Part shown: positions 565-18,966 of the stretch, piece after piece
Layout: every line of letters begins with the position of its first letter
How positions within the stretch are numbered: the stretch's first letter is position 1
Source of the DNA: Nitrosospira multiformis ATCC 25196
GTDB lineage: Bacteria; Pseudomonadota; Gammaproteobacteria; Burkholderiales; Nitrosomonadaceae
Reading direction: 5' to 3'
DNA: 32,000 nucleotides
Assembly (NCBI RefSeq): GCF_000196355.1
Contig: NC_007614.1
Coordinates: 150,001-182,000 of the forward strand
Notes under the pieces: generated by a model
Told to the model about the DNA's origin: nothing
What the model saw: the letters and a program-made list of their open reading frames with translations, nothing else
Database searches by the model: none
Made by a program: the position numbers and the translations under genes

Positions 565-2610
565 TCAGTTCCGGATCAGCTCCTGAAAGAGTTTTGCCCA
601 GCGCGCAATGGTGCCAGCATCAAACGCGCCGATGCCCTTTTTGAGCGCCTGTTCCTTGACGCGCTTTGCAACTTCAACTCTCCATTCATCCCGTAACACC
701 AGGTCCTGTGCTTCGGCCCAGGCCTGCACCTGCGCCACCACGGGCTTGCCGTTGACCAGGACGTCCGCAAAGGCCGTGTCCGTATTCCTCTCCCAGCGGT
801 CTATTACTTGTGCAAAAAACGGTGCAGGTATCAGATCTTCTGTCGTGGAGTTGCTGAAGAGAACGTAATTATCCGTCGAAAAGATACGCTCCTGCGCGTC
901 GCTGTACAAATCCGACTTCAACTCTGCATTGATCTGCTTTCCTGCTTCGTCATCCCGCAGGACTACCTTGGGCAGCGGCTCGTCGCGCCCACTAATGATG
1001 CTTGCGATCACGCCTACCGTTTTGCTGGCGCCAGCCGGCGGAAAGAGCAGTTCGCGCTTCGGGGCTATCTTGTTTGCCCCAATGAGGAGTGTCTTGATGG
1101 TCGAGAGATAATATTGATCCGAGACGCGCTGCACGACGACCGGTTGACAGCCCGTTACCATGCTCTCGGCAATATTCAGGTTCAAGGCCGAGTGAACCAC
1201 ATAGGCGGCTCCCGCCTGCCGGACATCCTTTTCCACGCTACGAAGGTCCGACGTCACTTGCGTCGTTCCGTTCGCGGAAACATATACCTTGCGCGCGCGT
1301 CCCAGGTGCTCTGCATCCAGCAGGAATGGTGAATGGGTCGTGTAGAGGATTTTGTTGACTTTTGCAAGACTGTCAAAGAAGGCAAAAAGGTTGCGCTGCG
1401 CCAGGGGGTGCAGGGACAATCCGGGCTCGTCCAGCAACAAGACGGCGTTCTGGTGCTCACCCCCGCTTTCCACGAGGAAGACCAGATAAAAACTCAGAAA
1501 CCACTGCAGCCCCGTGCTTCTGCTTTCGAGCTCAACTTCCTCCGGGCGGCGGTCATCGGAAACCCATATGCGGAAATGGCTTCCATCCGCTTCGAAGCGG
1601 AATTTGTAATCTCCCTGCTTCCACCAGTTTCTGAACTTTTCCGTCAGAAGCCCGCCTGCCGATTGCAGCAGGATGGAACGCTCCCTTTTCTTCATCGCGA
1701 TTTCCCGGATTTCTTCCACTGTGGGTTCACGACGACGGCCCTTGCGCCTTGGAAAGTCCCGCCCGAGTTCAAGAATTTCTCCCGGCTCGAGGCCTACGAA
1801 TTTAAAAAGAACGCGCAATGTACGCGACTTGGCTGCTTCTCTGGGCCCAAGGTCAGTGCGTTGAAGATTCTGTACTACGTGGGGAAGATAGATTTCAGAA
1901 TCGAGATTTCCGAATTCAGAGTAATAGACAAATTTGGGAAGGGAGTGGATGACCGTATCCACAACATCCTCTGCCTCTTCCCCCGATGATCTCCTGATCT
2001 CGCCAAGCTCTTCCCGCCGGGGGAAGGAGATCGAATAATCCCCATTGAAGTACCGTTTCACAGCGATGAGGGAGGCCTCTTCGCTGGAGATCTCCAGCTT
2101 GCCGCACAGCTCTTCTCCAAGCTCTCCTGCCTCAAATTCCGCCGTTATGAAGTGGAAGCTTTCCGGTGCCTGGCGCACAGGGCCGAATTGTTTTTTCGGG
2201 TAGTCGGAAGCCGGCACGATCTCTCCCCCGACTGCCGGATTCAGCTTCCAGAGCGGAACCAGCAGGTTTGTCTTGCCGGATTCGTTCACGCCGATGAGCG
2301 CGGTAACGCTGTCAACCTCAATCCAGCCACTGTTCTCCACCGAGCGAAAATTTGTGACCAGAAATCGGGTAAGGTGCATGGGGTGTATTATTCTGTCGTC
2401 TATTGCTTCTCCCGGGGCCGGGGCGTCAACCGGGCTGTCAACAGGACTTTCAACGGGACTTTCGCTGTTGCTTGTGGCTTCCGCATGATCCTGAGGCTCT
2501 GGTATCTCTGGTATGTCTGATATTCGGGGAAGGAGCAGCATGTCTTGCAATGGTTGCTTATTCATAAAGTCTGTGTCTTTTTCTTTGACAGGCAATATAT
2601 GTATCGTCAT
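565..2610 (-). CDS. Stand-alone ABC/SMC-type (AAA_15/21-like) ATPase of the OLD-nuclease-like class with a C-terminal Toprim-like region
   Basis: 681-aa ORF. Walker A GVNESGKT (aa 107-114), signature-like RSTGLQWFLSF (aa 364-374), Walker B VLLLDEPGLSLHP (aa 390-402), H-loop YTTHSPF (aa 423-429). The C-terminal ~190 aa carries VVVQRVSDQYYL and VVLRDDEAGK where OLD/Toprim proteins usually have xxVEGxxD and DxD. ATG at 2610 is preceded by agagag. An alternative ATG at 2379 (MHLTRF...) would drop a 77-aa low-complexity N-terminus (SPVESPVDSPVDAPAP). Confidence 0.8.
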   Translation of the reverse strand: MTIHILPVKEKDTDFMNKQPLQDMLLLPRISDIPEIPEPQDHAEATSNSESPVESPVDSPVDAPAPGEAIDDRIIHPMHLTRFLVTNFRSVENSGWIEVDSVTALIGVNESGKTNLLVPLWKLNPAVGGEIVPASDYPKKQFGPVRQAPESFHFITAEFEAGELGEELCGKLEISSEEASLIAVKRYFNGDYSISFPRREELGEIRRSSGEEAEDVVDTVIHSLPKFVYYSEFGNLDSEIYLPHVVQNLQRTDLGPREAAKSRTLRVLFKFVGLEPGEILELGRDFPRRKGRRREPTVEEIREIAMKKRERSILLQSAGGLLTEKFRNWWKQGDYKFRFEADGSHFRIWVSDDRRPEEVELESRSTGLQWFLSFYLVFLVESGGEHQNAVLLLDEPGLSLHPLAQRNLFAFFDSLAKVNKILYTTHSPFLLDAEHLGRARKVYVSANGTTQVTSDLRSVEKDVRQAGAAYVVHSALNLNIAESMVTGCQPVVVQRVSDQYYLSTIKTLLIGANKIAPKRELLFPPAGASKTVGVIASIISGRDEPLPKVVLRDDEAGKQINAELKSDLYSDAQERIFSTDNYVLFSNSTTEDLIPAPFFAQVIDRWERNTDTAFADVLVNGKPVVAQVQAWAEAQDLVLRDEWRVEVAKRVKEQALKKGIGAFDAGTIARWAKLFQELIRN

Positions 2611-2700
2611 TATAACTCTCTGATTGCTCAGGGCGGGTACTTAAAGAGCGTTTGTTGAGCCAGAATTTGCAATACTTTTCGACACTCTTGCCAACCCCCC

Positions 2701-2723
2701 AAAAAAGCCGCGGAACGCACGGC
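2701..2723 (-). terminator. Rho-independent terminator candidate downstream of the deaminase gene
   Basis: On the minus strand, gccgtgcgttccgcggc (6-bp GC-rich stem including one G-U pair, 5-nt loop) is followed directly by tttttt, about 50 nt after the stop at 2774. Confidence 0.5.
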
Positions 2724-2773
2724 CACGTCTTACCTCCTTATTCTTTTCCTGCTCCCATTCTCAGGTTGCAAAG

Positions 2774-3217
2774 CTAGGCGCCGTACAGTTCTGCGGCAGA
2801 CAGGCCGAGATCGAGTCGAATGAGCGGCAGGGGTGGAGGCTTTAGTGGCAGGCTCAGCTTCTGATAGGTCGCCTTGCTCGAAAAACCATAGGGTTCCGCG
2901 TCATCGTTGTCGAAAGCGTAATAGACCGCATCCACTCCTGCTATCACCATGGCTGCCAGGCACATGGGGCAGGGGTGGCCGCTGGCGTAAACTATGCTGC
3001 CTCTCAGATCAGGACGACCGAGCTTCCGGCTGGCAGCGCGCACTGCCTCCATTTCTGCATGCGTGGTAGGATCATTGCTCTGCACCACGTCGTTGACGCC
3101 GGTGGAAACGGCTTGTCCCTCGACAACGAGGACTGCGGCAAAGGGCCGGCTACCCCGTTCACGGTTGTTTTTGGCGAGACGCACTGCTTCCCGCAGAAAT
3201 GTTTCATGTTGAGACAT
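2774..3217 (-). CDS. CMP/dCMP-type zinc deaminase, guanine/nucleoside deaminase-like (GuaD/TadA superfamily)
   Basis: 147 aa. Zinc-binding motifs HAE (TTHAEMEAV) and PCPMC (SGHPCPMCLAAM). The N-terminal HETFLREAVRLA...PFAAVLV...SNDPTTHAE pattern is co-linear with small bacterial guanine deaminases. Confidence 0.85.
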   Translation of the reverse strand: MSQHETFLREAVRLAKNNRERGSRPFAAVLVVEGQAVSTGVNDVVQSNDPTTHAEMEAVRAASRKLGRPDLRGSIVYASGHPCPMCLAAMVIAGVDAVYYAFDNDDAEPYGFSSKATYQKLSLPLKPPPLPLIRLDLGLSAAELYGA

Positions 3218-3307
3218 CTGGCTTCCTGTTTGACTTACCTGTCTGTAGCGCTTGTGCCAAGCTGTCGCACCGATATGATTACGGCAAGCTCCTGGAATCC
3301 CTTCCCC

Positions 3308-4165
3308 TTAAAAAAGAATGGAGGGCAGAAAACTTCCGGCGGGCTGGTTGTAGAGGCCAAGGCTCATCAGATTCATCGGTTGAACTACCCGAAGCCCCTG
3401 CTGCAGGCACCAGCGGAACAACTCGCTATTATGCGTGGGCAGAAGAAAGCCTGGACCCGCAAACGCGGCCGCGGCGCCGATCAGGGCCTTGAGGTCTTCA
3501 TTGCTTTCTCCCACTGCATGTCCCGTGAAGCCAATTAACGTCGCGTAACCGGTAATGTGCCCTCCGTGTTCCACCACCATTGCGGTCTGCTGCCCAATCG
3601 CGTGGCGCAATTCCTGCCCTCTATCGTGACCGTGTATCTTCCGGCACAAGGCGTCGCATGCATTTGCATCCTCCGCCCTTGCCGGACGGACATTGTAGCC
3701 GGAGATATCGATTTGCAGGGGCGCTCCCTGCAGAGTTGCCAATGGTTCCCGCACCTCAAATCCGAGCTTGGTGTAGAGGGAGAGGGAGCGGTTATTATAT
3801 GCAGCTTGCACCAGCCGCACGCCTGCGAAATGTTTATTCCGCGCATGCTCCAGCACATCCTCCATCAGGCCTCGGCCTACCCTGTCGCTTTGGGTTTCCG
3901 GTATTACCGTCAGCGGCCCAATGCCGGCAATGGCGGAATCCTGCCATAAGAAATTGCTGCCGATGATTCTTCCTTCGCTTTCAGCCACGACCGAATATAC
4001 ATCGGGTCTCGAGAGCAACCCCAGGAGGAGATCACGCGCCACTTCGAACGAGGGAAAGTCGGGTTCAAAACCATGCTGCTGAGAAATGGTCCTGAATGCT
4101 TCGTAGCAGATCATCCCGGCCGCCCCGGCATCCGCCTGGCGGCCTTCCCGTATTTTGAATTGCAT
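3308..4165 (-). CDS. GNAT family N-acetyltransferase with an extra C-terminal domain
   Basis: 285 aa. Acetyl-CoA motif RVGRGLMEDVLEHAR, followed by NNRSLSLYTKLGFEV, typical of the GNAT fold. The C-terminal ~130 aa are unassigned. Confidence 0.8.
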   Translation of the reverse strand: MQFKIREGRQADAGAAGMICYEAFRTISQQHGFEPDFPSFEVARDLLLGLLSRPDVYSVVAESEGRIIGSNFLWQDSAIAGIGPLTVIPETQSDRVGRGLMEDVLEHARNKHFAGVRLVQAAYNNRSLSLYTKLGFEVREPLATLQGAPLQIDISGYNVRPARAEDANACDALCRKIHGHDRGQELRHAIGQQTAMVVEHGGHITGYATLIGFTGHAVGESNEDLKALIGAAAAFAGPGFLLPTHNSELFRWCLQQGLRVVQPMNLMSLGLYNQPAGSFLPSILF

Positions 4166-4327
4166 GTTTCCCCGCTAATGGAATCGCCTGGTGGGCGACG
4201 AACAGCAGACGTGCGCGCAGTATGACGATGTTACTCCAGAAAAAGAGAACACTCTCGCGCAAACTGCCGTTGATACTCCAGGAAAGGGTAATCATGCGCT
4301 TAAGCCTGAAAAGTGCAATACTGATTC

Positions 4328-5083
4328 ATGGTTACCGCTACATTCCGTTTTTATGAGGAACTGAATGACTTTCTCGTTCCCGAGCGGCGCAAGCGGGAAT
4401 TTTCCTGTCCCTGCGCCCGTGCAGCGACCACCAAGCATATGATCGAAGCACTGGGCGTCCCGCACACCGAAGTGGAGCTGGTGCTGGTAAATGGAGAATC
4501 GGTGGGGTTCGACCGGATACTGGAGCATGGCGACCGGGTCGCGGTCTTTCCCAAATTCGAAATGGTCGACGTCGCGCCCTTGTTGCGCGTGCGCGAGCAT
4601 CCCCTGCGGGTAACGCGCTTCATTGCAGATGCTCACCTAGGCGGTTTGGCCCACCTGTTGCGCATGACGGGTTTCGACACGCTGTACGACAATAATTATC
4701 ACGACCGCCAGATCGAATTGCTCGCTGCCCAGGAAAAGCGCATCGTGCTCACCCGCGACCGGGAATTGCTCAAGCGGCGTTCGATTACGCATGGATGCTA
4801 TGTGCGGACTTTGAAGCCACCTGAGCAGCTTTGTGAGATTTTCGATCGGCTGGACCTCGCGCACAGCATCAAGCCTTTTACCTTATGCCTGAACTGCAAC
4901 GCACCTCTGCGGCCTGTGGAGAAGAGTGTAGTGCTTGAGCGCCTGCCGCCGTCAGTACGCGAGCGCTTCGACCATTTCAGCACGTGCGATATCTGTCACC
5001 GGGTTTTCTGGGAGGGTTCGCACTGGCAGCGCATGCGGACGATGCTGGAGGAGTGTATTAAGCCAAACCGATTTGGGGGATAA
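4328..5083 (+). CDS. Mut7-C RNase (PIN-like, DUF82) with N-terminal ubiquitin/MoaD-like domain and C-terminal zinc ribbon
   Basis: 251 aa. The N-terminus FRFYEELNDFL...VELVLVNGESV is a beta-grasp-like module. RFIADAHLGGLAHLLRMTGFDT...IVLTRDRELLKR is the PIN-like core. The Cys pairs CLNCN ... CDICH form a zinc ribbon. Confidence 0.8.
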   Translation: MVTATFRFYEELNDFLVPERRKREFSCPCARAATTKHMIEALGVPHTEVELVLVNGESVGFDRILEHGDRVAVFPKFEMVDVAPLLRVREHPLRVTRFIADAHLGGLAHLLRMTGFDTLYDNNYHDRQIELLAAQEKRIVLTRDRELLKRRSITHGCYVRTLKPPEQLCEIFDRLDLAHSIKPFTLCLNCNAPLRPVEKSVVLERLPPSVRERFDHFSTCDICHRVFWEGSHWQRMRTMLEECIKPNRFGG

Positions 5084-5335: not shown

Positions 5336-5411
5336 GGGTCGTTAGCTCAGCTGGTAGAGCAGCGGACTCTTAATCCGTAGGTCGAGCGTTCGAATCGCTC
5401 ACGACCCACCA
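5336..5411 (+). tRNA. tRNA-Lys (anticodon CUU), CCA encoded
   Basis: gggtcgttagctcagctggtagagcagcggactcttaatccgtaggtcgagcgttcgaatcgctcacgacccacca. The 7-bp acceptor stem gggtcgt/acgaccc, D arm, anticodon loop c-t-CTT-a-a, T arm gagcg-ttcgaat-cgctc and terminal CCA are all present. Closely resembles enterobacterial tRNA-Lys. Confidence 0.95.
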
Positions 5412-5499: not shown

Positions 5500-6180
5500 T
5501 TACGGGGGCGGTGGCTGTGGAGCAACTTGTACCCAGTCACCGGGACAATCCTTGACATAAGGATAATAACCTTCCGATTCCCGGCAATAATACCAATAGC
5601 CGGATGGGAGCTGAGCCGTATTTTGCGTGTCATTTTGTTCCGGAAGGTTTTGTTGGATGTATACCGGCGGTGCTGCAGGCACGGGCACCGCGATTGGATA
5701 AGGATACATGGGCGGATAGGGATAATAAGGCGGCCCATAAGCCAGGGCACCATAACCCAGGCCATATCCTAATCCCAACCCTAGCCCATATCCCCCAAAT
5801 CCAAATCCCAAGCCGTAACCGTAGCCACGATAGAAACCGCGCGGGCCCCGGTAGTAACCGAATCCGCCCCCGCGATAGCGGCCGACTCCACCGCCTCGGT
5901 AATAACCGACTCCTCCGCCAAAATGCTCTCCACCCCCATAATGCATTCCTCCCCCGTGCGCCCATCCCCCACCCCCGATGTGCCCACCGCCTCCAAAATG
6001 CATTCCTCCGCCTCCCATATGTCCGCCCCCTCCCATATGTCCGCCCCCTCCTATATGTCCGCCGCCACCAAATACTCCCCCTCCATGTCCTCCCCCGCCA
6101 CCTCCGCGCGCCCATACTGAAACGCCAGGAATCAACCCAAGCATGAGAAGGACAACGCACATCAATTTAATCTTCTTCAT
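5500..6180 (-). CDS. Exported Gly/His-rich low-complexity protein, paralogue 1 (226 aa), with a Cys-bracketed C-terminal module
   Basis: The best start is ATG 6180 (MKKIKLMCVVLLMLGLIPGVSVWA, signal-peptide-like), not the track start at 6261. Order of blocks: GGGGH(I/M) repeats; an RGG/GYY block; a GLG/GYG block; a Pro/Tyr block; VPAAPPVYIQQ; then YWYYCRESEGYYPYVKDCPGDWVQVAPQP. Confidence 0.8.
   Translation of the reverse strand: MKKIKLMCVVLLMLGLIPGVSVWARGGGGGGHGGGVFGGGGHIGGGGHMGGGGHMGGGGMHFGGGGHIGGGGWAHGGGMHYGGGEHFGGGVGYYRGGGVGRYRGGGFGYYRGPRGFYRGYGYGLGFGFGGYGLGLGLGYGLGYGALAYGPPYYPYPPMYPYPIAVPVPAAPPVYIQQNLPEQNDTQNTAQLPSGYWYYCRESEGYYPYVKDCPGDWVQVAPQPPPP
6014..6067 (-). repeat. Three tandem 18-bp units inside the Gly/His-rich CDS, each encoding GGGGH(M/I)
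   Basis: cccatatgtccgccccct (6014-6031), cccatatgtccgccccct (6032-6049), cctatatgtccgccgcca (6050-6067). These are in-frame coding repeats, not a CRISPR array. Confidence 0.9.
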
Positions 6181-6241
6181 ACAGATCTCGGTCCCTATCG
6201 GTCCTATCGCGGGCTTGACTTGATCCATATTTCTTTTGGGA

Positions 6242-6661
6242 TTAACGCAACCAGAATCCACCGACTTTCTGGTCCTTCAGGGCCATGAAAATGAGAACGT
6301 CATCATTCCCGTCCTTGAATACCACCTTCCAGACATATACGTCGAATCCCTGTTGGCGCAGTGTGGTCAGGAATATCGTGGTGTAGCCTTGCTTGAGGCG
6401 CGAGGCGAGGGATTGGTTGATGCTGCTGAGCATCTCCTTTGTCATCCCGGCTTGAAATGCTTCATCTCCTGGCGATACAAAATCGGCCAATGAGTTAGCC
6501 AGAATAGCTGACACCATGTTTTTCATGATTGCTTCAATGGGCTGTGGCGCCTGCGCCGATTGCCGCGCTTGCGCCAGCACCACAGAAGAGGTGAATGCAA
6601 GAAAAAATATGACAGAAAGGACCAGGCGATTTGCAGAGGACGTCAAAAGAGGCAGATGCAT
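6242..6661 (-). CDS. Small exported hypothetical protein
   Basis: ATG at 6661 (or 6673) gives MHLPLLTSSANRLVLSVIFFLAFTSSVVLAQA, which is signal-peptide-like. The track start at 6799 is unlikely. The gene ends 61 nt upstream of the start of paralogue 1 and is probably co-transcribed with it. No family recognised. Confidence 0.55.
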   Translation of the reverse strand: MHLPLLTSSANRLVLSVIFFLAFTSSVVLAQARQSAQAPQPIEAIMKNMVSAILANSLADFVSPGDEAFQAGMTKEMLSSINQSLASRLKQGYTTIFLTTLRQQGFDVYVWKVVFKDGNDDVLIFMALKDQKVGGFWLR

Positions 6662-7187
6662 AAGATTCTCCATGGAGAAAAATAGAGGGGCATAGAGAGG
6701 GCGTGATAGGCGCCGCTTCCTGTAGTCAGTTCCAGGTAGCCGCTGGAAGTATTTTCTCTGCCGGATTTCTAAGGGTGCAGAGATCGAGAATGAGGGCAAT
6801 TTCCCTTTACTTTTCCTTTATCCATTTTTCACGTGTCGTTCCATGTATTCCTGCCATGAGGAATCCCCTCAGCAGCACTGGGAAGGTGGCGTGCAATTCC
6901 AAAAAACAGGTTAAATTCGGGAAACCCGATAATCTGTGCGGCACCTCACTCAGTGAACCTTTTTAACGTTCGTACGAGTTTTTGAAATTATCTGTCGAGC
7001 AATTGCACGTGTCTTTCATGACCGGCAGAGGTTGCCACATCCAATGAATGGAAAGGTTTAATGGAAAAGTCATAGGCATGGCAGAGCGATACATTGACTG
7101 TTCCGACCCTTGAAGCGGCACATCGGATACGCCGGGGGGATTGATGCCCTGAGCACATCTCGCCCTGCGCTAAGGTTGAAGCAGCTT

Positions 7188-7667
7188 TCAGTTCGATGAA
7201 GGTGCATTCGCCATCTTCTTACCCCCTGCATGGAACAGGTGGTGGAGCATGAAGGCAACAATTGCCAGATTCAGTGTCAAGGCGCCAAGGCTCAGCCAGG
7301 TAACACGCTCATACAATTCGAAAAGCTCAAAAGGCACGTAAATCGCGCCGCTTGCGGCTGCAAACCATTGTGCCCAGCGCCTTGCACGCCAGAGCCCATA
7401 TGCCTCGATGAATCGTGCCAGCGAGTAGGCGCCCGCTCCAGCCGCAATCAGCAACAAGCGGGTGTTTGTGAGCTGATTGGCCAAATCAATAAAGATGTGG
7501 GGATAACGGGAGGCGGGATTCAGGTGAGTGTGCGCCAGCAGGTGCTCGACAGCCTGCTGAATGTCGTGATGTACCAGGGAGAGTAAATCAAATCCCACCA
7601 GCAATACCAGGGCACCTTTGGCAGCTTCAAAAACTGCGAGTGTGCGTAATGCACCCGATAATTTCAT
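7188..7667 (-). CDS. DUF2127-like integral membrane protein
   Basis: Four hydrophobic segments. The FIEAYGLWRARRWAQW...YVPFELFEL pattern matches my recollection of DUF2127. ATG at 7667; the track start at 7697 is a TTG. Confidence 0.6.
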   Translation of the reverse strand: MKLSGALRTLAVFEAAKGALVLLVGFDLLSLVHHDIQQAVEHLLAHTHLNPASRYPHIFIDLANQLTNTRLLLIAAGAGAYSLARFIEAYGLWRARRWAQWFAAASGAIYVPFELFELYERVTWLSLGALTLNLAIVAFMLHHLFHAGGKKMANAPSSN

Positions 7668-8057
7668 AAGCGGTAGTGGAATATCGTATCGAGCCAAAGG
7701 GGTAGCTCTCTCACCTTGTCAATTTACAGCAACGCAACCTGCCCGGCGAGCCGGGCCTTCAATTTCCGAATCGCGTTAAAATATCTGACTGGCGACGCGG
7801 GCTTCAGGGTTCAAGCAGCCGCCAGCGGTTTAATCCAGGAGGCAGTATTCCGCCTTTCCTTTTCCCGTCTGCCCGGTATTACCGATGAAATGGTGAAAGA
7901 CGCACCTGGGCTCGCATTGGCCAAACGCGAATTAGGGGAGAGGGGGTAAACGGTATTCAGGATAGGCTCGTAGAGGACGAATGCATCTGGCATTGCTTGG
8001 GAAGGGCGAACAACGCTTAGCCAGCGCAGATTGCTTAGGTGAGAAAGGAGTTCCAGC

Positions 8058-10496
8058 CTACTCCGCGACTCCCTCCGGAAACCCTCTCAACGCAAGCGCA
8101 GCCAAGCTATAGATGGCTACCGCCAACAGGATCACGAAAGTAAACCCCAGGTGAATAGCCAGTAAAGTGGCGAGTACCGCTCCCACGACGGAGGCGAAAC
8201 CGTTGATTGCCCAGACCCAGGGGATTGCCTCTCGGGCAGTGAAAGCTAACCTCATCGTTCCCGTGGGAAAGGGCATGCCCATGCAAAACGCAAGCGGCGC
8301 GATCAACGCTACCGAAATAGCGATTTTTGCCGGATCGGATAAATGGATCAGCGTATCAAACAGGCTGGGCAGGATAGCGAGATAGAGCAGTGCAAGGACA
8401 CCTATTGCCATTACTGCAACAGTCAGATGTCCACTCTTCCGGAACCGCTTTTGCAAGCGCCCGGCAAGCCAGCTTCCCACACCGGCAAATGCCAGAAATG
8501 CGGACAATACGCCGGCGACCGCATATAACGGATGAGCCAGAAACAGGATAAATTTTTGGATGAACGCGATTTCCATGAACATGAAAGCCAGGCCGATGGC
8601 AAGGAAGTACAAAGCGACTTTTGCGGGAGGCAGTGCTCGACGTGCTTTTGAGGCCAGAAGTGGCGCCAGAATGAGAACAACGCTCGCAATGAATGCCTGG
8701 ATCAGCGTTGCTACCAGCAGTGGATAGCTCCAGTCCAGAAGCGGCATGCCTCCCTGTTCCCGCAAGGCGAACAGTTCGCGCAGGGAATCCCACTTGAAGA
8801 AACGGAAAAAAAAAGGCTGATCGTCGGTGGCGGGCTCGATAAAGAATTTATACCGATCGATAAAGGTTTGGCGATCCCCGGCCAGTAACGCGGTTGCTCC
8901 CTCGAAGAAATAGGGCTGTGCCAGCACATTGTAGCGATTTGCTTCCTCGGGTCGCATTCCCGGGTAATAGGTTGTGTCGAATGAGCGCTCACGGCAGAAT
9001 TTCCTGATCGCTTCGATCTCCGCCACCGTGAAATTGCTGTGCTTCACAAGCAGCGTGACCGTTTTCCAGCCCCTTATCATTACAAGGCGCGCTCCTGGAT
9101 TGTCTACGCCGCTTCGCTCCAGGGCGGTGATCGCTGTCGCGAATAATTTCAGGGCATCCCGTGGTGGGAGAGTCAGCCAGCGCGTAATTGCCAGCACCCC
9201 GCCCGGCATTAGCCTTCTCAGATAGGTTTGAAACGCTTCCACGGTATAAAGGTAGCTTTCACTCAGGCCGTACACACCCGCGGCGGCAACACCAAACGAA
9301 TCCAGCAGGGCGACCTGAATCAGATCGTAACGGCTGCGGGTTGCGTTAACAAAGCCGCGCGCTTCCGCCTCGTGTATATGCACCTGGGGCAATGTGTAAA
9401 TATCTCCCCCAAAGTCATGGAAGCGCTTCTCGACGAGATCGATGACGTTGCGGTCGAGTTCTACCCCATCGATCCTGATCGCGCCATGGTAGAGGGCCTG
9501 CAGAACGTCGCTGCCCGCCCCTGCTCCCAACACCAGCACATGCGGGCCGGCGTGAGGCCGCTGCAGCACATGGTAAGGTAACGCCGAGGTAAGCTGGTCG
9601 AGATAGGATAGGGGTTCACGTCGGCCATTAAAGCGCGTCAGCACGGAGGGGCCGTCTCCATCCACGAATATGCCCAGCTGATCCGGCGGTTCTTCCAGCG
9701 CATTAAGGCTCATTCCCGGCGCATAACGGAAAGGAACGCGCGGGCTTTCCACGACCGTAATCTGTCCCAATGGACTGGAACGTTCTCCGATCACCTGCGC
9801 GCCCGTAATATTCAGGGCTTGACTCAAATCCTTGTAGGGGGAAGGATGCACACGGAACCCCTCGGGGGGGATGGCCAGCAATACCAGGAAAGCCAGCCCG
9901 AGAAGGGCAATCCACAGCCACTCGGGTCGTATCCTCATCTCGATTGTGGCGACAGCGGCGGCAAACAGGGCCAGTGCGGCGAGGACGATAAGCAGGTTGT
10001 GTGGTGGTGTAAGAAACAGCACGCCGATAACACACATACTGCCTATTCCCGCTCCCATAATATCGAAGGCGTAGATGCGCCCAGCCTGCTGCCCAAAGTG
10101 CGACAGGATGAGGCCGATACCTGTTCCCGCGCAGAAGAAGGGCAGCATCATGAGCAGATAAATGGAGAGCAGGTGCGTCAACTGGAATGGATCCCATAGC
10201 AGTTCAAGGGGGTTGAACGGGATTTCCTGCGCCAGTAGAAACGCCGCGGGCATGAGAAAAGCGAGGCCAATGGCTGCCGCGAGATAGATAGGGCCTATGT
10301 ACCCGTTAATTTTTTCTCGTAAGAGTGTGAGAGCGGTGCCACTCGCTCCGTAGCCCAGCATCGCCGCGCTGATGATCATGTAGGCAAAATGGTGCCACAG
10401 CACGATGCTGAACAAGCGCGTGAGCAATACCTCATATGCCAGTACGCAGGCGGAGAGCAGTCCGATGGCAATAAAGGGCGGACGTGGCAAGGACAT
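8058..10496 (-). CDS. Fused MFS-like / spermidine-synthase-like polytopic membrane protein (SAM-dependent transferase core)
   Basis: 812 aa. N-terminal (~7) and C-terminal (~6) hydrophobic helix bundles flank a soluble core. The core carries SAM motif I HVLVLGAGAGSDV and a SpeE-like YDLIQVALLDSFG. The gene starts 5 nt after the pcm stop, indicating an operon. Confidence 0.85.
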   Translation of the reverse strand: MSLPRPPFIAIGLLSACVLAYEVLLTRLFSIVLWHHFAYMIISAAMLGYGASGTALTLLREKINGYIGPIYLAAAIGLAFLMPAAFLLAQEIPFNPLELLWDPFQLTHLLSIYLLMMLPFFCAGTGIGLILSHFGQQAGRIYAFDIMGAGIGSMCVIGVLFLTPPHNLLIVLAALALFAAAVATIEMRIRPEWLWIALLGLAFLVLLAIPPEGFRVHPSPYKDLSQALNITGAQVIGERSSPLGQITVVESPRVPFRYAPGMSLNALEEPPDQLGIFVDGDGPSVLTRFNGRREPLSYLDQLTSALPYHVLQRPHAGPHVLVLGAGAGSDVLQALYHGAIRIDGVELDRNVIDLVEKRFHDFGGDIYTLPQVHIHEAEARGFVNATRSRYDLIQVALLDSFGVAAAGVYGLSESYLYTVEAFQTYLRRLMPGGVLAITRWLTLPPRDALKLFATAITALERSGVDNPGARLVMIRGWKTVTLLVKHSNFTVAEIEAIRKFCRERSFDTTYYPGMRPEEANRYNVLAQPYFFEGATALLAGDRQTFIDRYKFFIEPATDDQPFFFRFFKWDSLRELFALREQGGMPLLDWSYPLLVATLIQAFIASVVLILAPLLASKARRALPPAKVALYFLAIGLAFMFMEIAFIQKFILFLAHPLYAVAGVLSAFLAFAGVGSWLAGRLQKRFRKSGHLTVAVMAIGVLALLYLAILPSLFDTLIHLSDPAKIAISVALIAPLAFCMGMPFPTGTMRLAFTAREAIPWVWAINGFASVVGAVLATLLAIHLGFTFVILLAVAIYSLAALALRGFPEGVAE

Positions 10497-10501
10497 GATG
10501 A

Positions 10502-11212
10502 TTAATGTCCGCCTCTGAGAGGAACGAACCGAACCGGGACAATTTGATGGGTGGTAACTGAACCGTCCGGCTGTTTCTCCACCAGCATCAGGTACTGGGT
10601 CATGAAAGGTGCGCCCAACGGCACCACCATACGTCCGCCGGGCTTCAGTTGCTTGAGCAGAGGAGGGGGCACATGACTGGCGGCGGCCGTTACCAGGATG
10701 GCGTCGAATGGGGCCGCTTCCGGCCAGCCGTAATAACCGTCCCCTATGCGGGTCTTCACATTGTCGTAGCCCAGCGATTGCAATCTTCCTGCAGCCTCGT
10801 TTCCCAGGGGTTCGATGATTTCAATTGTATAAACCGTTTTCGCGATCTCCGCCAGGACAGCAGCCTGATAACCCGAGCCCGTCCCGATTTCAAGAACCTT
10901 GTCGTCTTTCTTGAGCTTCAGCAGCTCGGTCATCCGCGCAACGATGAGGGGTTGCGAGATCGTCTGTCCATGGCCGATCGGGAGTGGATGATTGCGATAC
11001 GCAAATATGGAGAGCCAGGCAGGTACGAAGCGATGGCGCTCCACTTTTTCCATTGCCGCTACAACACTTGCTCCGGGAGGGGAATTACCGGATGCGGCAA
11101 TCACTTCCCTCACCATTTTCTGGCGCAAGGCCTCATATTCCGCAGCTGACAGCGGAATAACACAACCGAAATACATCAATGCGCCGAAAGCGGTCGCAAA
11201 CTGCCAGTTCAT
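10502..11212 (-). CDS. pcm: Protein-L-isoaspartate(D-aspartate) O-methyltransferase with an N-terminal signal-peptide-like segment
   Basis: HRFVP...HGQTISQPLIVARMTELL...VLEIGTGSGYQAAVLAE...DAILVTAA...LKPGGRMVVPLG is the canonical PIMT motif set. ATG 11212 gives MNWQFATAFGALMYFGCVIPLSAAEYE, hydrophobic with an LSA-A cleavage-like site. The track start at 11239 is a TTG. Confidence 0.9.
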   Translation of the reverse strand: MNWQFATAFGALMYFGCVIPLSAAEYEALRQKMVREVIAASGNSPPGASVVAAMEKVERHRFVPAWLSIFAYRNHPLPIGHGQTISQPLIVARMTELLKLKKDDKVLEIGTGSGYQAAVLAEIAKTVYTIEIIEPLGNEAAGRLQSLGYDNVKTRIGDGYYGWPEAAPFDAILVTAAASHVPPPLLKQLKPGGRMVVPLGAPFMTQYLMLVEKQPDGSVTTHQIVPVRFVPLRGGH

Positions 11213-11247
11213 CAGTTCATTAAAGCAAATTTGCGGCAACTTGCTGA

Positions 11248-11277
11248 AATGCGCCGCCTTACTCGTTGCGGCGCATT
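11248..11277 (-). other. Strong hairpin between Gly/His-rich paralogue 2 and pcm (attenuator or terminator candidate)
   Basis: The 10-bp perfect arms aatgcgccgc / gcggcgcatt flank a 10-nt loop. No clear U-tract follows on either strand. It sits 36 nt upstream of the pcm ATG. Confidence 0.3.
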
Positions 11278-11394
11278 GCTTGGACTCAGGGTATGTTCAA
11301 GATCGCGCAGGCGGTTCGAGGGTAAGGTTATCCAAAACTGAAAATCTTACCCTACGGAGGTGGGAGCGGGGGGAGTAATCATGGCAATTTTGCG

Positions 11395-11847
11395 CTATTG
11401 CCCAGGTTGAGGCGCAACTTGCAGCCATCCACCCGGGCAGCTTTTCACGTAAGGATAGTAGCCTTCCGGATTCCGGCAGTAATGCCAGTAGTTTGAGGCT
11501 TGGGGCTGGGGCGGGGCCTGCACGACGCCCTGCTGGATATAGACAGGGGGAGCAGCGGGAACCGAGACGACAGGGGCATACCCATAGCCTGCCGGAGGAT
11601 AGCTGTAGGCAGGGGGATACGAGGGACGAGCAGCATAGGAACTCAGGCCATAACCCAGCAGACCCAACCCCAGACCGATTCCAACCCCATAGCCCCAACC
11701 TCCACCTCCGCCGTGTCGATGGTGATGATGCCCATGGTGGTGGTGCCCATGATGACCGTGACCATGCCCTCCCCCGGCCCATGCGGGACTCATGGGAGCT
11801 GCCATGAACAGCGTGAGTGCAAAGCACCCGAATTTTATTTTTGTCAT
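11395..11847 (-). CDS. Exported Gly/His-rich low-complexity protein, paralogue 2 (150 aa), with the same C-terminal module
   Basis: ATG 11847 is preceded by ggagatcttc (paralogue 1 has gagatctgt in the same position). Signal peptide MTKIKFGCFALTLFMAAPMSPAWA. Then GGGHGHGHHGHHHHGHHHHRHGGGGGWGYG, a GLGLG block, a Pro/Tyr block, VPAAPPVYIQQ, and NYWHYCRNPEGYYPYVKSCPGGWLQVAPQP. Confidence 0.8.
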   Translation of the reverse strand: MTKIKFGCFALTLFMAAPMSPAWAGGGHGHGHHGHHHHGHHHHRHGGGGGWGYGVGIGLGLGLLGYGLSSYAARPSYPPAYSYPPAGYGYAPVVSVPAAPPVYIQQGVVQAPPQPQASNYWHYCRNPEGYYPYVKSCPGGWLQVAPQPGQ

Positions 11848-12660: not shown

Positions 12661-13308
12661 ATGTCGAACGAAGCGGTTAACTATTGGAAGTTTGCAACGA
12701 TTGGAATATTGCTGGTGGGCGCAAGCGTTGCATCGACTCTGTTCCTCACGGGGCGGGATTCCGATTCCAAGCCCGAGCTCGCGGCTTCCGCGGCTGAGAC
12801 TGAGGCAGTTTCCGCTGGCGGCGAGACTCCGGTTTCCGAGGCAGGGAAAAAGCCTCTTGCTTCAGTCCCCGAACCGGCCCCAATCGCCCAAGCTGCCCCT
12901 GAGCCTCCAAAGCGCCCCAGAGTAACGCAATCGAACCAGAATGCCGCAGCTGCGGTTCCTCCTTCCCCGTCCTATGCTCCCCCGGCGGCATATCCCCCCC
13001 AGCCGGTCCGTTCGTCCTACCCGTCTCAGTCCGTCATGAATGAATGCAACCGCTATGCAAGCGAGCAGGTGAACAGCAAAGCCGAAGAAGTGCTCAAGAA
13101 CGCAGCGCTCGGCGCAGCGCTAGGGGCGGCTGTAGGTGCTGCAGGTGGAGCGATCGCCGGCGGTGGAAAAGGTGCTGGCAAGGGTGCAGCGATTGGTAGT
13201 ATAACAGGCGTTGCTGGCGGAACTCTTTATGGTCTCAACGAGACCAAATCCCATGATGGACAGTATCAGGCTGCCTATTCTTCCTGCATGCGCGCCAAGG
13301 GGTATTAA
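12661..13308 (+). CDS. Membrane-anchored glycine-zipper protein (YMGG-like)
   Basis: aaggag 5 nt before ATG 12661; the track start at 12646 is a TTG. One N-terminal TM segment (FATIGILLVGASVASTLF), then a Pro/Ala-rich linker. The zipper is GAALGAAVGAAGGAIAGGGKGAGKGAAIGSITGVAGG, with C-terminal YQAAYSSCMRAKGY. Confidence 0.7.
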   Translation: MSNEAVNYWKFATIGILLVGASVASTLFLTGRDSDSKPELAASAAETEAVSAGGETPVSEAGKKPLASVPEPAPIAQAAPEPPKRPRVTQSNQNAAAAVPPSPSYAPPAAYPPQPVRSSYPSQSVMNECNRYASEQVNSKAEEVLKNAALGAALGAAVGAAGGAIAGGGKGAGKGAAIGSITGVAGGTLYGLNETKSHDGQYQAAYSSCMRAKGY

Positions 13309-17296: not shown

Positions 17297-17752
17297 TCAA
17301 TGGCCTCGGCCTACGTGTTGCCTCAAGCAATCAATTATCCGTTGTTTGTTATTGGCATTCGCCACGCGGACTGCAAGCATCAGGCCAGCCTGCTCATGTG
17401 GTATTTTGTTCGCACTTTCGCCCTCGCCGCCTAAACCACCTGCTGTACCTGCAAGTGAACCTGTATAACTCCCTGCGGCAGCCGCTACTGCCCCGGCGGG
17501 TTCCCCAGTCACCGGGCTGGTAATACTTGCCGCAATGCCTCTGGAGGCTGCACGGGTTGCCATTCCTTTTGCCGCCCCTTTTGCGCCACCCTGGTCGTTG
17601 GTTCTAACCGCATCACGATCCGAATCGAGAGCACCTGGCTGATTGTTAGATAAAATGAAAATATCATTCTTGTTTACAGAATCAGCCAGTGACGCTGCCG
17701 CTGCCCTGGCCTCATCGCCTGTTTCAAATCTTACTGTGATAATGTCTTCCAT
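17297..17752 (-). CDS. Hypothetical protein with a Gly/Ala-rich central linker
   Basis: ATG 17752 is preceded by caggagag. The protein begins MEDIITVRFETGDEARAAAASLADS, has a G/A-rich middle and ends with ...GLMLAVRVANANNKQRIIDCLRQHVG. No family assigned with confidence. Confidence 0.5.
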   Translation of the reverse strand: MEDIITVRFETGDEARAAAASLADSVNKNDIFILSNNQPGALDSDRDAVRTNDQGGAKGAAKGMATRAASRGIAASITSPVTGEPAGAVAAAAGSYTGSLAGTAGGLGGEGESANKIPHEQAGLMLAVRVANANNKQRIIDCLRQHVGRGH

Positions 17753-18966
17753 AAATCTCTCCTGAAAATGATGGATTGATGATTTCCAGTCTTCATCGAG
17801 TACTTCATTCACACATCATTCAATTCGCCAACGCCACATCGAACTACGGCTTTTCTGCCCCCAGTCTTGTCGATCAACTGATAGCGCGGATTACAGAAGT
17901 TATTTTAAGAACGTCGGTTATCCCCATCTGTTCGGTAACTCACCGCGGAGAGAATATATTTTCCTGACCCGATCAGGCCAAGGCAGAATCTTTAGGACAC
18001 CTAATAATCCTTAAATTAAGATCCGGCCTTAGTGGAGAACTGGGCCGGTCTGGAGAAGTATCGAAGATCCGCAAGACCATCAGATGACGGGGACACTGAA
18101 TGTCGAGAGTTCCCCCGGAGGCCGTGATCACCCAAGCGGATGTCCCACGGCCTGACGCGCTGTAATGGGAGGCTGCTTTGGCACGTTCTGTTTTACTCTT
18201 GGAGCAATTGCCGGTTCGATCCGCAAGATCGATTGCAACTGCCGGAGCCCCGGAATCTGCTTCAACCCGGCCGCACTCAACTATGGGGCACTTTACCCCC
18301 GGCGAGAGCTGCAGAGCAGGCTTCCTCATTGCCGATGCCTTCTCGTGCGGCTGGTTACGAGGTGATGGTGCCGTTGAAGAGGAACCAGTCTTTTAGGCTC
18401 TTTGCTTAGGGAAGTACTTAACAAATCGCTGGAAAATTGGCTCCGAAGCTACGAGTGTTTAGGGAACCGTAAAAGCATAGGGGGTGCGGACGAAGCTCTG
18501 AGGACGTCGCAGACAGCTTTAAGTATGTTTTCCAATATTTCCTCTCGCTCAAACCCGATTCAGCAGGTTTTTGTTTCTTGACCCCCCGTAGACTTCAATC
18601 CCGATAATGCCCGCTAATGGTTCCCAGGTGACAAGCACAGTCCTGCGATAGATCAAGGAATTTCCAGCCTTTTCGCCATATCATCTGTTATCGCGCCCTC
18701 TACCTGCTCTATTCACAGATTCTCTCCCAGATTGGCTTGGACTTATCCCTCGCTCTTCTAAACATCCTGAGGGTTTGCTGACTCGCCTTACTCATAGGGA
18801 ACGCATCTTCCTGAAATTCGTTCGTGCGATCCGCTTTTCATGGTTTTTTATGGTAAAAGGCAAAATATAGACTGCAAAACAAAAGAAATTTGTGTAACTG
18901 TACGCCTCCCGATTCAAAGGGCTTATTGAACAATAGGGTGGGCAGATTCTGAGGAGTATGTAATTA

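Follow-up and report, generated by a model that had tools for sequence, protein, structure and literature searches.

Two low-complexity proteins of Nitrosospira multiformis belong to an undescribed, widespread proteobacterial family usually encoded next to a Gly-zipper lipoprotein

Lipoproteins of the SlyB/YfgH/17-kDa antigen/YMGG class carry a lipobox and a Gly-zipper, and two of them, YfgH and SlyB, have been reported as stress-specific outer-membrane stabilisers (bioRxiv 10.64898/2025.12.22.696046). None of these lipoproteins has been described with a co-encoded, exported low-complexity partner. Here we analyse a 32,000-nucleotide stretch of Nitrosospira multiformis ATCC 25196 (contig NC_007614.1, positions 150,001 to 182,000; hereafter the window) that encodes two Gly/His-rich proteins, P1 and P2. 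We find that N. multiformis has at least three paralogues, P1 and P2 among them, of an undescribed and widespread proteobacterial family, labelled A, defined by a C-terminal two-Cys module. The usual neighbour of an A gene encodes a Gly-zipper lipoprotein, labelled B, whose nearest known relatives are the lipoproteins named above; they are not relatives of P1 or P2. Family A and the pairing of A with B are, in our assessment, novel at family level, with no name, structure or literature; the claim of novelty covers family and gene pair and extends to no mechanism.

The two proteins are encoded on the minus strand (coordinates in Table 1) and follow a single order, namely a signal peptide, a His/Gly block, tracts of alternating Gly and hydrophobic residues or GYG together with Pro/Tyr tracts, the motif PPVYIQQ, a Gln/Pro linker and the module. 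A sequence-only reading of the window had described them as paralogues of one architecture sharing PPVYIQQ and a two-Cys C-terminal end. This description was borne out by the open reading frames (ORFs), by composition-adjusted BLASTP of P1 against P2 (E=1e-7, with identities concentrated in the last ~50 aa) and by the module profile search presented below. PPVYIQQ is identical in the two proteins, the module common to both spans 29 aa (YW[YH]YC-x12-C-x3-W-x2-V-x-P-x-P), and mature P1 and mature P2 have exactly two Cys apiece, both of them inside the module. No further module copy was found in the window. Judging from signal-like N-termini read by eye, both proteins are likely exported. An exact-sequence match locates P2 on N. 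multiformis contigs (GCA_900108135.1 and one from a sister strain). The 90%-identity cluster of P2 includes ABB73461.1 (154 aa, 'proline-rich region', N. multiformis ATCC 25196). P1-type relatives were found at loci L002, L020 and L068 and as protein P0083, and the length of the P1 His/Gly block varies among strains by indels in its 18-nt tandem repeats.

A GAGATCT heptamer stands equally spaced before the ATG of P1 and P2, and upstream similarity stops there. The shared heptamer and its spacing thus agree with the conserved Shine-Dalgarno context claimed earlier; its role as a Shine-Dalgarno site is ambiguous. Because the P2 heptamer sits within an in-frame ATG-GAG-ATC-TTC-ATG (MEIFM), and because ME(T/I)xM recurs ahead of the start in other paralogues, GAGATCT may, as readily as a Shine-Dalgarno site, represent a leftover of ancestral coding sequence or an alternative start.

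With a profile of the C-terminal region as query, a search of 1.84 billion representative proteins, of the kind that the sequence-only reading had proposed, revealed a large unnamed family. Clustered at 50% identity, the matches with E<=1e-3 formed 2,628 clusters, of which 546 reached E<=1e-10. Conservation was assessed in a sample of 167 proteins, made up of 19 from a first search plus the best profile-search matches. The C-x12-C spacing was invariant in all 202 module copies of this sample, and Trp(-3), Gly-Tyr-Tyr-Pro(+5 to +8), Trp(+17) and Val(+20) were 83-100% conserved. The number of module copies per protein was one (134 proteins), two (22) or three (8). P1 and P2 fit every position of the resulting pattern (W-[YH]-Y-C, G-Y-Y-P at +5 to +8, Cys at +13, Trp at +17 and Val at +20). 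Both also carry the family's layout of signal peptide, Gly/Tyr/Pro(/His) low-complexity region and motif, the last being P-x-x-Y-[IV]-[EQ]-[QR] placed 16-19 aa ahead of the module. PPxY is present in 101/170 proteins and Y[IV][EQ][QR] in 127/170, at this fixed distance of 16-19 aa N-terminal of the module.

Family A spans Alpha-, Beta- and Gammaproteobacteria and includes ammonia oxidisers and methanotrophs. A GWWW...YPYP motif, found too in the A-B fusion proteins described below, is the hallmark of a broad subfamily from Alpha- and Gammaproteobacteria (P0274, P0282, P0285 and P0290). Since the module and the whole architecture are kept across classes, we rejected the possibility that the ORFs are low-complexity artefacts. 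One A-type gene of Nitrosovibrio sp. Nv4 (L010 5199-5645, plus strand) stops right after PPVYIQQ and so lacks the Cys module. A complete A gene follows it directly, and the short gene represents either a natural truncation or a module-less variant.

The module had been described as outside the named families, and our searches uphold this. Neither P1 nor P2 matched a Pfam (2025 models) or NCBIfam (June 2026) family above cutoff, and ten multi-copy relatives with 2-3 modules had no Pfam or NCBIfam match at E<=1. A sequence-profile search of the PDB with the module returned only chance matches to antibody complementarity-determining region 3 loops (YYC..GYFPY), Foldseek against the PDB with the module model returned 0 matches, and a tblastn search of annotated plasmids, with a three-module relative as query, yielded a single weak, unannotated match. 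Database names of A sequences are 'hypothetical protein' or 'proline-rich region' only, and a literature search by motif, locus-tag prefix, accession and keyword found no publication on the module family. A large unnamed module family that spans three proteobacterial classes is thus without structure or literature.

To describe the gene context we clustered ORFs in 79 related loci from GTDB species genomes, mostly of Nitrosospira, Nitrosovibrio and Nitrosomonas, with Methylobacter, Methylococcaceae, Halothiobacillus, Azoarcus and Aromatoleum also represented. An A-then-B pair was counted when both genes lay on the same strand and the B stop codon fell 300-1,100 nt past the A stop. The dominant neighbour of A genes was B, a ~180-aa lipoprotein gene located directly downstream on the same strand, which followed 73 of about 95 genuine A genes. 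In the pairs that were inspected, the A and B reading frames ranged from a 4-nt overlap to about 30 nt apart, and tandem A-B-A-B cassettes occur in Nitrosomonas. The pair extends beyond these genera, as it was found in four of six distant loci, namely L083 (A-B), L085 (A-A-B-B), L088 (Hyphomonadaceae, Alphaproteobacteria) and L089 (Sinimarinibacterium, Gammaproteobacteria). Furthermore, two metagenomic proteins of 280-281 aa (P0289 and P0291) are natural single-chain A-B fusions, in which a His/Arg/Trp-rich low-complexity region is followed by GWWWVVGPSWYYYPTPVYPYP, the Cys module, a poly-Pro stretch, a Gly-zipper 2TM domain (PF05433) and 17kDa_Anti_2 (PF16998).

B proteins consist of a lipobox, PGxGKxFxQFRxDDxxCR, a Gly-zipper, QQRYDxxYxQCMYAKGHxVP and a tail such as PPPPPPGNPPPPPPQ. 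Of 75 B proteins, 69 have a lipobox-like motif and 69 have a run of four or more Pro within the final 45 aa. Several reach the Pfam gathering score for Gly-zipper_YMGG (PF13441), and B weakly matches the NCBIfam models PRK11280 (which we take to be YfgH), YiaD and TagQ. The lipobox and Gly-zipper of B, together with the PF05433 and PF16998 domains of the fusions, place it near the SlyB/YfgH-type lipoproteins, from which it differs by its conserved Cys...QCMYAKGH core and its poly-Pro tail. P1 and P2 themselves were unmatched by the Gly-zipper Pfam models (PF13441, PF13436 and PF05433), which match B and the window gene at 12661-13308. The A-B pairing and fusions offer a testable handle on a lipoprotein class only recently recognised as outer-membrane stress stabilisers. 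As a separate observation, some Nitrosomonas-type A variants of 360-540 aa carry, after the signal peptide, a 250-400-aa acidic extension of GGGFD/GGDFD repeats ahead of the usual architecture (L023, L024, L045, L060, L064, L070, L075, L077, L078 and L081); five of these (L045, L070, L077, L078 and L081) have no adjacent B.

Structure prediction separates the module from the rest of the A chain. In an AlphaFold2 model of 58 aa built on a 60-sequence alignment, the module reached a predicted local distance difference test (pLDDT) score of about 89 and formed three short strands, while the 26 residues upstream of it were disordered, the PPVYIQQ segment scoring below 50. In the full-length P2 model, the module (pLDDT about 80) was the sole part above 70, the remainder falling below 60. 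A proteins are thus predicted to be largely disordered outside a confident small β module, which would be stapled by a C-x12-C disulfide.

WW domains of class I bind PPxY ligands. Like a WW domain, the module is ~30 aa long with three predicted short β strands, has two Trp 20 positions apart, a central G-Y-Y and a Pro after the second Trp, and occurs with PPxY upstream in the A chain and poly-Pro in partner B. In contrast to WW domains, it has a C-x12-C pair, its predicted third strand comes after the second Trp instead of containing it, and it belongs to bacterial, extracytoplasmic proteins. The W-x9-YY-x9-W spacing and PPxY prompted us to consider WW-domain identity, which we rejected at the level of sequence, as hhalign against a hand-built WW alignment gave a probability of 2.1% over 6 columns. 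Any resemblance is at most convergent.

Starting from the architecture, family size, Cys spacing, predicted fold and disorder, and A-B linkage and fusions described above, we propose that the mini-domain of A docks a disordered chain onto B, and that the chain serves as a pH- or metal-responsive envelope layer. A proteins would be exported by the Sec route and be largely disordered up to a ~50-aa conserved end formed by P-P-x-Y-I-Q-Q, the linker and the mini-domain. The mini-domain would act as a docking or adaptor element that attaches the A chain to the outer-membrane lipoprotein B, possibly by contacting the poly-proline tail of B. The multivalent, His-titratable and Gly/Tyr-rich chain could then form a self-associating layer under the outer membrane, responsive to pH or metal, that would contribute to envelope stabilisation or ion buffering. 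Because the B genes adjacent to the window copies have been lost, P1 and P2 would have to rely on a B from the locus of the third paralogue, or on the B-like protein encoded at 12661-13308.

We assign this docking reading a probability of roughly 45%, and several findings weigh against it. About a quarter of A genes have no adjacent B, including those in two of the six distant loci (L086/L087 and L091). P1 and P2 are themselves among them, and no B remnant was detectable downstream of either. The poly-Pro tail of B is short or degenerate in some pairs, such as Nitrosomonas B1 and L088. The module has no profile similarity to the poly-Pro-binding WW domain (PF00397), which was unmatched in Pfam at E<=1. 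Finally, the predicted disorder of P2 derives from a shallow alignment of 26 sequences. Its pairing with B makes family A a case in which to study the function of exported, intrinsically disordered, His-rich proteins in the bacterial envelope. A bolder version, in our view improbable, holds that A-B is an unrecognised Proteobacteria-wide envelope system in which the disulfide-stapled mini-domain, as a convergent WW analogue, binds poly-Pro or PPxY and tethers a pH/metal-responsive condensate under the outer membrane. Its target would be the B tail or the PPVY strand of a neighbouring chain, and the gel formed by the disordered, His-titratable, Gly/Tyr/Arg-rich chain might be a periplasmic counterpart of the His/Gly-rich animal biomaterials discussed below.

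The best-surviving alternative to docking on B is that A proteins are periplasmic metal sponges or chaperones, with the His/Gly block binding Cu, Ni or Zn, the rest acting as a spacer and the module as a cap. This explanation, which takes up the metal binding suggested by the sequence-only reading, overlaps with docking and does not exclude it; on balance we find it doubtful. The evidence that speaks for it begins with the His-rich N-terminus. Such a mature N-terminus is usual among 86 full-length Nitrosomonadaceae-type relatives, whose His share is 15.6% within the first 40 mature residues, compared with 2.5% over the remainder. At least three His occur within those 40 residues in 66 relatives, fewer than three in the other 20, and many Nitrosomonas paralogues have His as the first predicted mature residue (HGGH... 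directly after the terminal A of the signal peptide). The His block is thus not peculiar to P1 and P2. The enrichment argues that the His-rich N-terminus is under selection, and it is compatible with metal binding or with pH sensing. P2 has its 14 His within 21 residues, P1 has four HM/MH pairs, and a third exported His-rich protein adjoins P2. The closest relatives belong to copper-dependent ammonia oxidisers and methanotrophs, in a list that the search patterns bias towards close relatives. A sub-threshold match to ZrgA also falls on the His run of P2.

Several observations run counter to the metal sponge. No recurring cop, cus, czc, znu or nik genes were found near A genes in the related loci, Met is not characteristic of the N-terminal blocks of the relatives examined, and 20 of the 86 are poor in His as stated. 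The invariant module and the linkage to B would be left unexplained. The one metal-family match, that of the ZrgA Pfam model to the P2 His run, was compositional and sub-threshold (13.5 bits against a cutoff of 27.4), and NCBIfam gave none. P1 and P2 thus resemble ZrgA and the SilE/PcoE-type periplasmic proteins in being exported and His-rich, and differ from them in sharing no domain and no metal-resistance gene context. The importance of the finding would diminish if the A proteins proved to do no more than buffer metals through their His residues.

Two further comparisons concern composition. The sequence-only reading had likened HGGGW-type repeats to the prion octarepeat (PHGGGWGQ), a Cu(II) site. 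Although the Gly-rich segments of P1 and P2 do include His and Trp, HGGGGGW occurs just once in P2 and GGGGWAHGGG just once in P1, neither in a repeat register. The analogy is loose because the exact HGGGW core is absent from both proteins, in which no Pfam match to the octarepeat was found either. Histidine- and glycine-rich structural proteins are known from animals, such as the squid-beak HBPs with their GHGxY repeats and Nvjp-1 of the Nereis jaw. P1 and P2 resemble these in their Gly/His/Tyr content, by analogy with which His might act as a pH or metal switch for coacervation or cross-linking; the animal proteins are eukaryotic and have no homology to P1 or P2, so that the likeness is one of composition only. 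Metal binding and condensate formation by P1 and P2 are, on this compositional footing, candidate properties.

A second alternative, which we regard as unlikely, dispenses with B and has A proteins self-assemble, the module of one chain binding the PPxY/VYIQQ strand or Pro/Tyr tract of another to yield head-to-tail polymers or a periplasmic matrix resembling amyloid or a gel. The frequencies of PPxY and Y[IV][EQ][QR] given above, and their fixed distance from the module, fit such a scheme, as do the superficially WW-like W-x9-YY-x9-W spacing, the existence of multi-module proteins, and a composition of alternating Gly and hydrophobic residues with RGG/GYY 'stickers' that suits self-association. 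The 2% returned by hhalign against the WW profile speaks against it, AlphaFold leaves PPVYIQQ undocked at a pLDDT below 50, and the tandem copy at L010 ends after VYIQQ and lacks a module.

Class II microcins, for example MccV, are Gly-rich and have a C-terminal disulfide. Their likeness to the A proteins, and the small lipoprotein gene directly downstream of most A genes, would accord with a secreted bacteriocin- or microcin-like toxin whose adjacent lipoprotein is an immunity or release factor. Two-protein Gly-zipper bacteriocins also exist, an example being CdzC/D of Caulobacter (PMC5380434). We consider a toxin very unlikely, however, as A signal peptides are of the Sec type, with no double-Gly leader or type I secretion signal, and no exporter genes were found in the A neighbourhoods examined. 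Moreover, several paralogues per genome occupy conserved positions, and Pfam MccV does not match A. Toxin-immunity pairs evolve fast, whereas both the module and B show strong conservation from class to class.

The last alternative concerns the gene cluster that P1 and P2 bracket, in which they, or P2 alone, might serve as substrate or precursor (a modified peptide resembling the ribosomally synthesised and post-translationally modified peptides (RiPPs), or a repair client) for protein-L-isoaspartate O-methyltransferase (PCMT) and the SpeE-like membrane enzyme. The bracketed cluster would in that case be the functional unit. A P2-type gene does lie upstream of PCMT and SpeE-like genes across Nitrosospira and Nitrosovibrio, PCMT relatives serve some RiPP pathways, and sub-threshold matches to TIGR04364 and TIGR04188 were seen. 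This is nevertheless the most improbable of the explanations, as the synteny is confined to one genus-level clade, the nearby PCMT of Nitrosomonas lies about 4 kb off on the opposite strand beside an ORF (N-terminus MRILVSNDDG) that we take to be SurE, the usual neighbour of housekeeping pcm, the window PCMT is best matched by the housekeeping equivalog NF001453, with a score of 238 bits where the cutoff is 188, and P1 and P2 are almost free of Asp and Asn outside the linker and module.

Table 1. Positions of P1, P2, their parts and neighbouring genes in the window
Feature	Position	Strand	Remarks
P1, exported family-A protein, 226 aa	5500..6180	-	mature: 35% Gly, 12% Tyr, 10% Pro, 9 His
P1 signal-like peptide MKKIKLMCVVLLMLGLIPGVSVWA, 24 aa, ending VWA before R	6109..6180	-	read from sequence; N-terminus conserved among paralogues
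P1 His/Gly block, GGGGH(M/I) hexapeptide repeats, 9 His	5923..6108	-	18-nt tandem repeat
P1 low-complexity region: RGG/GYY, GYGLG, PYYPYPP	5671..5922	-	
P1 PPVYIQQ motif	5650..5670	-	
P1 C-terminal module YWYYCRESEGYYPYVKDCPGDWVQVAPQP, YWYYC-x12-C-PGDW-VQVAPQP	5512..5598	-	
P2, exported family-A protein, 150 aa	11395..11847	-	identical to WP_074775508.1 ('hypothetical protein')
P2 signal-like peptide MTKIKFGCFALTLFMAAPMSPAWA, 24 aa, ending AWA before G	11776..11847	-	read from sequence
P2 His/Gly block GGGHGHGHHGHHHHGHHHHRH, 14 His in 21 residues	11713..11775	-	
P2 G-hydrophobic alternation (GYGVGIGLGLGLLGYGL) and Pro/Tyr low-complexity region	11551..11712	-	AlphaFold pLDDT below 60
P2 PPVYIQQ motif	11530..11550	-	
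P2 C-terminal module YWHYCRNPEGYYPYVKSCPGGWLQVAPQP	11404..11490	-	predicted small β domain
DUF3887-named (UniRef) exported protein, 139 aa, ABB73457.1	6242..6661	-	61 nt upstream of P1
DUF2127 membrane protein	7188..7697	-	loosely linked to cluster
Polytopic membrane protein, 812 aa, spermidine-synthase-like (SpeE-like) domain	8058..10496	-	5 nt after PCMT
PCMT, hydrophobic signal-like N-terminus	10502..11212	-	182 nt downstream of P2
Third exported His/Gly/Lys-rich protein, 138 aa	12176..12592	+	divergent from P2
Membrane-anchored Gly-zipper protein, sole B-like gene near P2	12661..13308	+	
tRNA-Lys(CTT)	5336..5411	+	abuts P1 3' end; position of B gene after P1-type genes in other Nitrosospira

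P1 and P2 had been said to bracket a 5-kb envelope cluster. Five co-directional genes are indeed bracketed; a conserved context or a single unit was not found. We do not treat the cluster as one unit because its intergenic gaps include 360 and 526 nt and because of the comparative neighbourhood data, in which other strains show a far wider distance between the DUF2127 and SpeE-like genes and P2-PCMT-SpeE-like synteny is confined to Nitrosospira and Nitrosovibrio. In Nitrosovibrio (L010), the B gene lies between the P2 orthologue and PCMT, giving the order A-B-PCMT-SpeE-like, divergent from a His/Lys-rich gene and a Gly-zipper gene. N. multiformis keeps this gene order minus B, with a 182-nt gap from P2 to PCMT. 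On the P1 side, a homologue of the 139-aa protein (orf139) lies upstream of a module gene in two further Nitrosospira loci. In one, from a metagenome-assembled genome (L020), it is followed by a P1-like A gene and then by B; in the other (L068) it is followed by a P1-like A gene, and the contig ends before any B position. The third N. multiformis paralogue retains its B, the two frames overlapping by 4 nt. A downstream B is hence the usual context of family A, not a defining feature. Both window copies having lost B, the bracketed cluster is therefore, as judged from gene order, a real but lineage-specific arrangement, and no evidence was found that it forms one functional unit.

Among the genes near P2, the protein encoded at 12661-13308 is the one with a likeness to B. 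Its C-terminal ~90 aa (Cys, Gly-zipper and YQAAYSSCMRAKGY) align with the B core at 34-42% identity without composition correction. Composition-adjusted BLASTP against B was not significant (E=7.7), and we hence call the protein 'B-like' only. A weak, uncorrected likeness to the B Gly-zipper core is also seen in an ORF at 17297-17812 on the minus strand, which is about 30% identical across ~70 aa. Across Nitrosospira and Nitrosovibrio the 12176-12592 gene keeps its place between the P2 orthologue and the Gly-zipper gene; its product has no family match, and a 9-nt tandem repeat underlies the segment that codes for its KGH repeats. An exported PCMT would be without its cofactor S-adenosylmethionine in the periplasm, so that the topology of the window PCMT is questionable. 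The gap between P2 and PCMT contains an 8-bp GC-rich hairpin (TGCGCCGC...GCGGCGCA; 11245-11275, minus strand) followed by three T only. A terminator scan did not call it, yet it might set P2 apart from PCMT as a weak terminator or attenuator.

The 3' side of P1 looks like the boundary of a strain-variable island. In a sister strain (L002), the 20-kb locus has no tRNA, and different genes lie beyond P1. Further out on this side, the window encodes at 565-5083 a Mut7-C RNase, a GNAT acetyltransferase, a deaminase and an AAA_15/AAA_21 ATPase.

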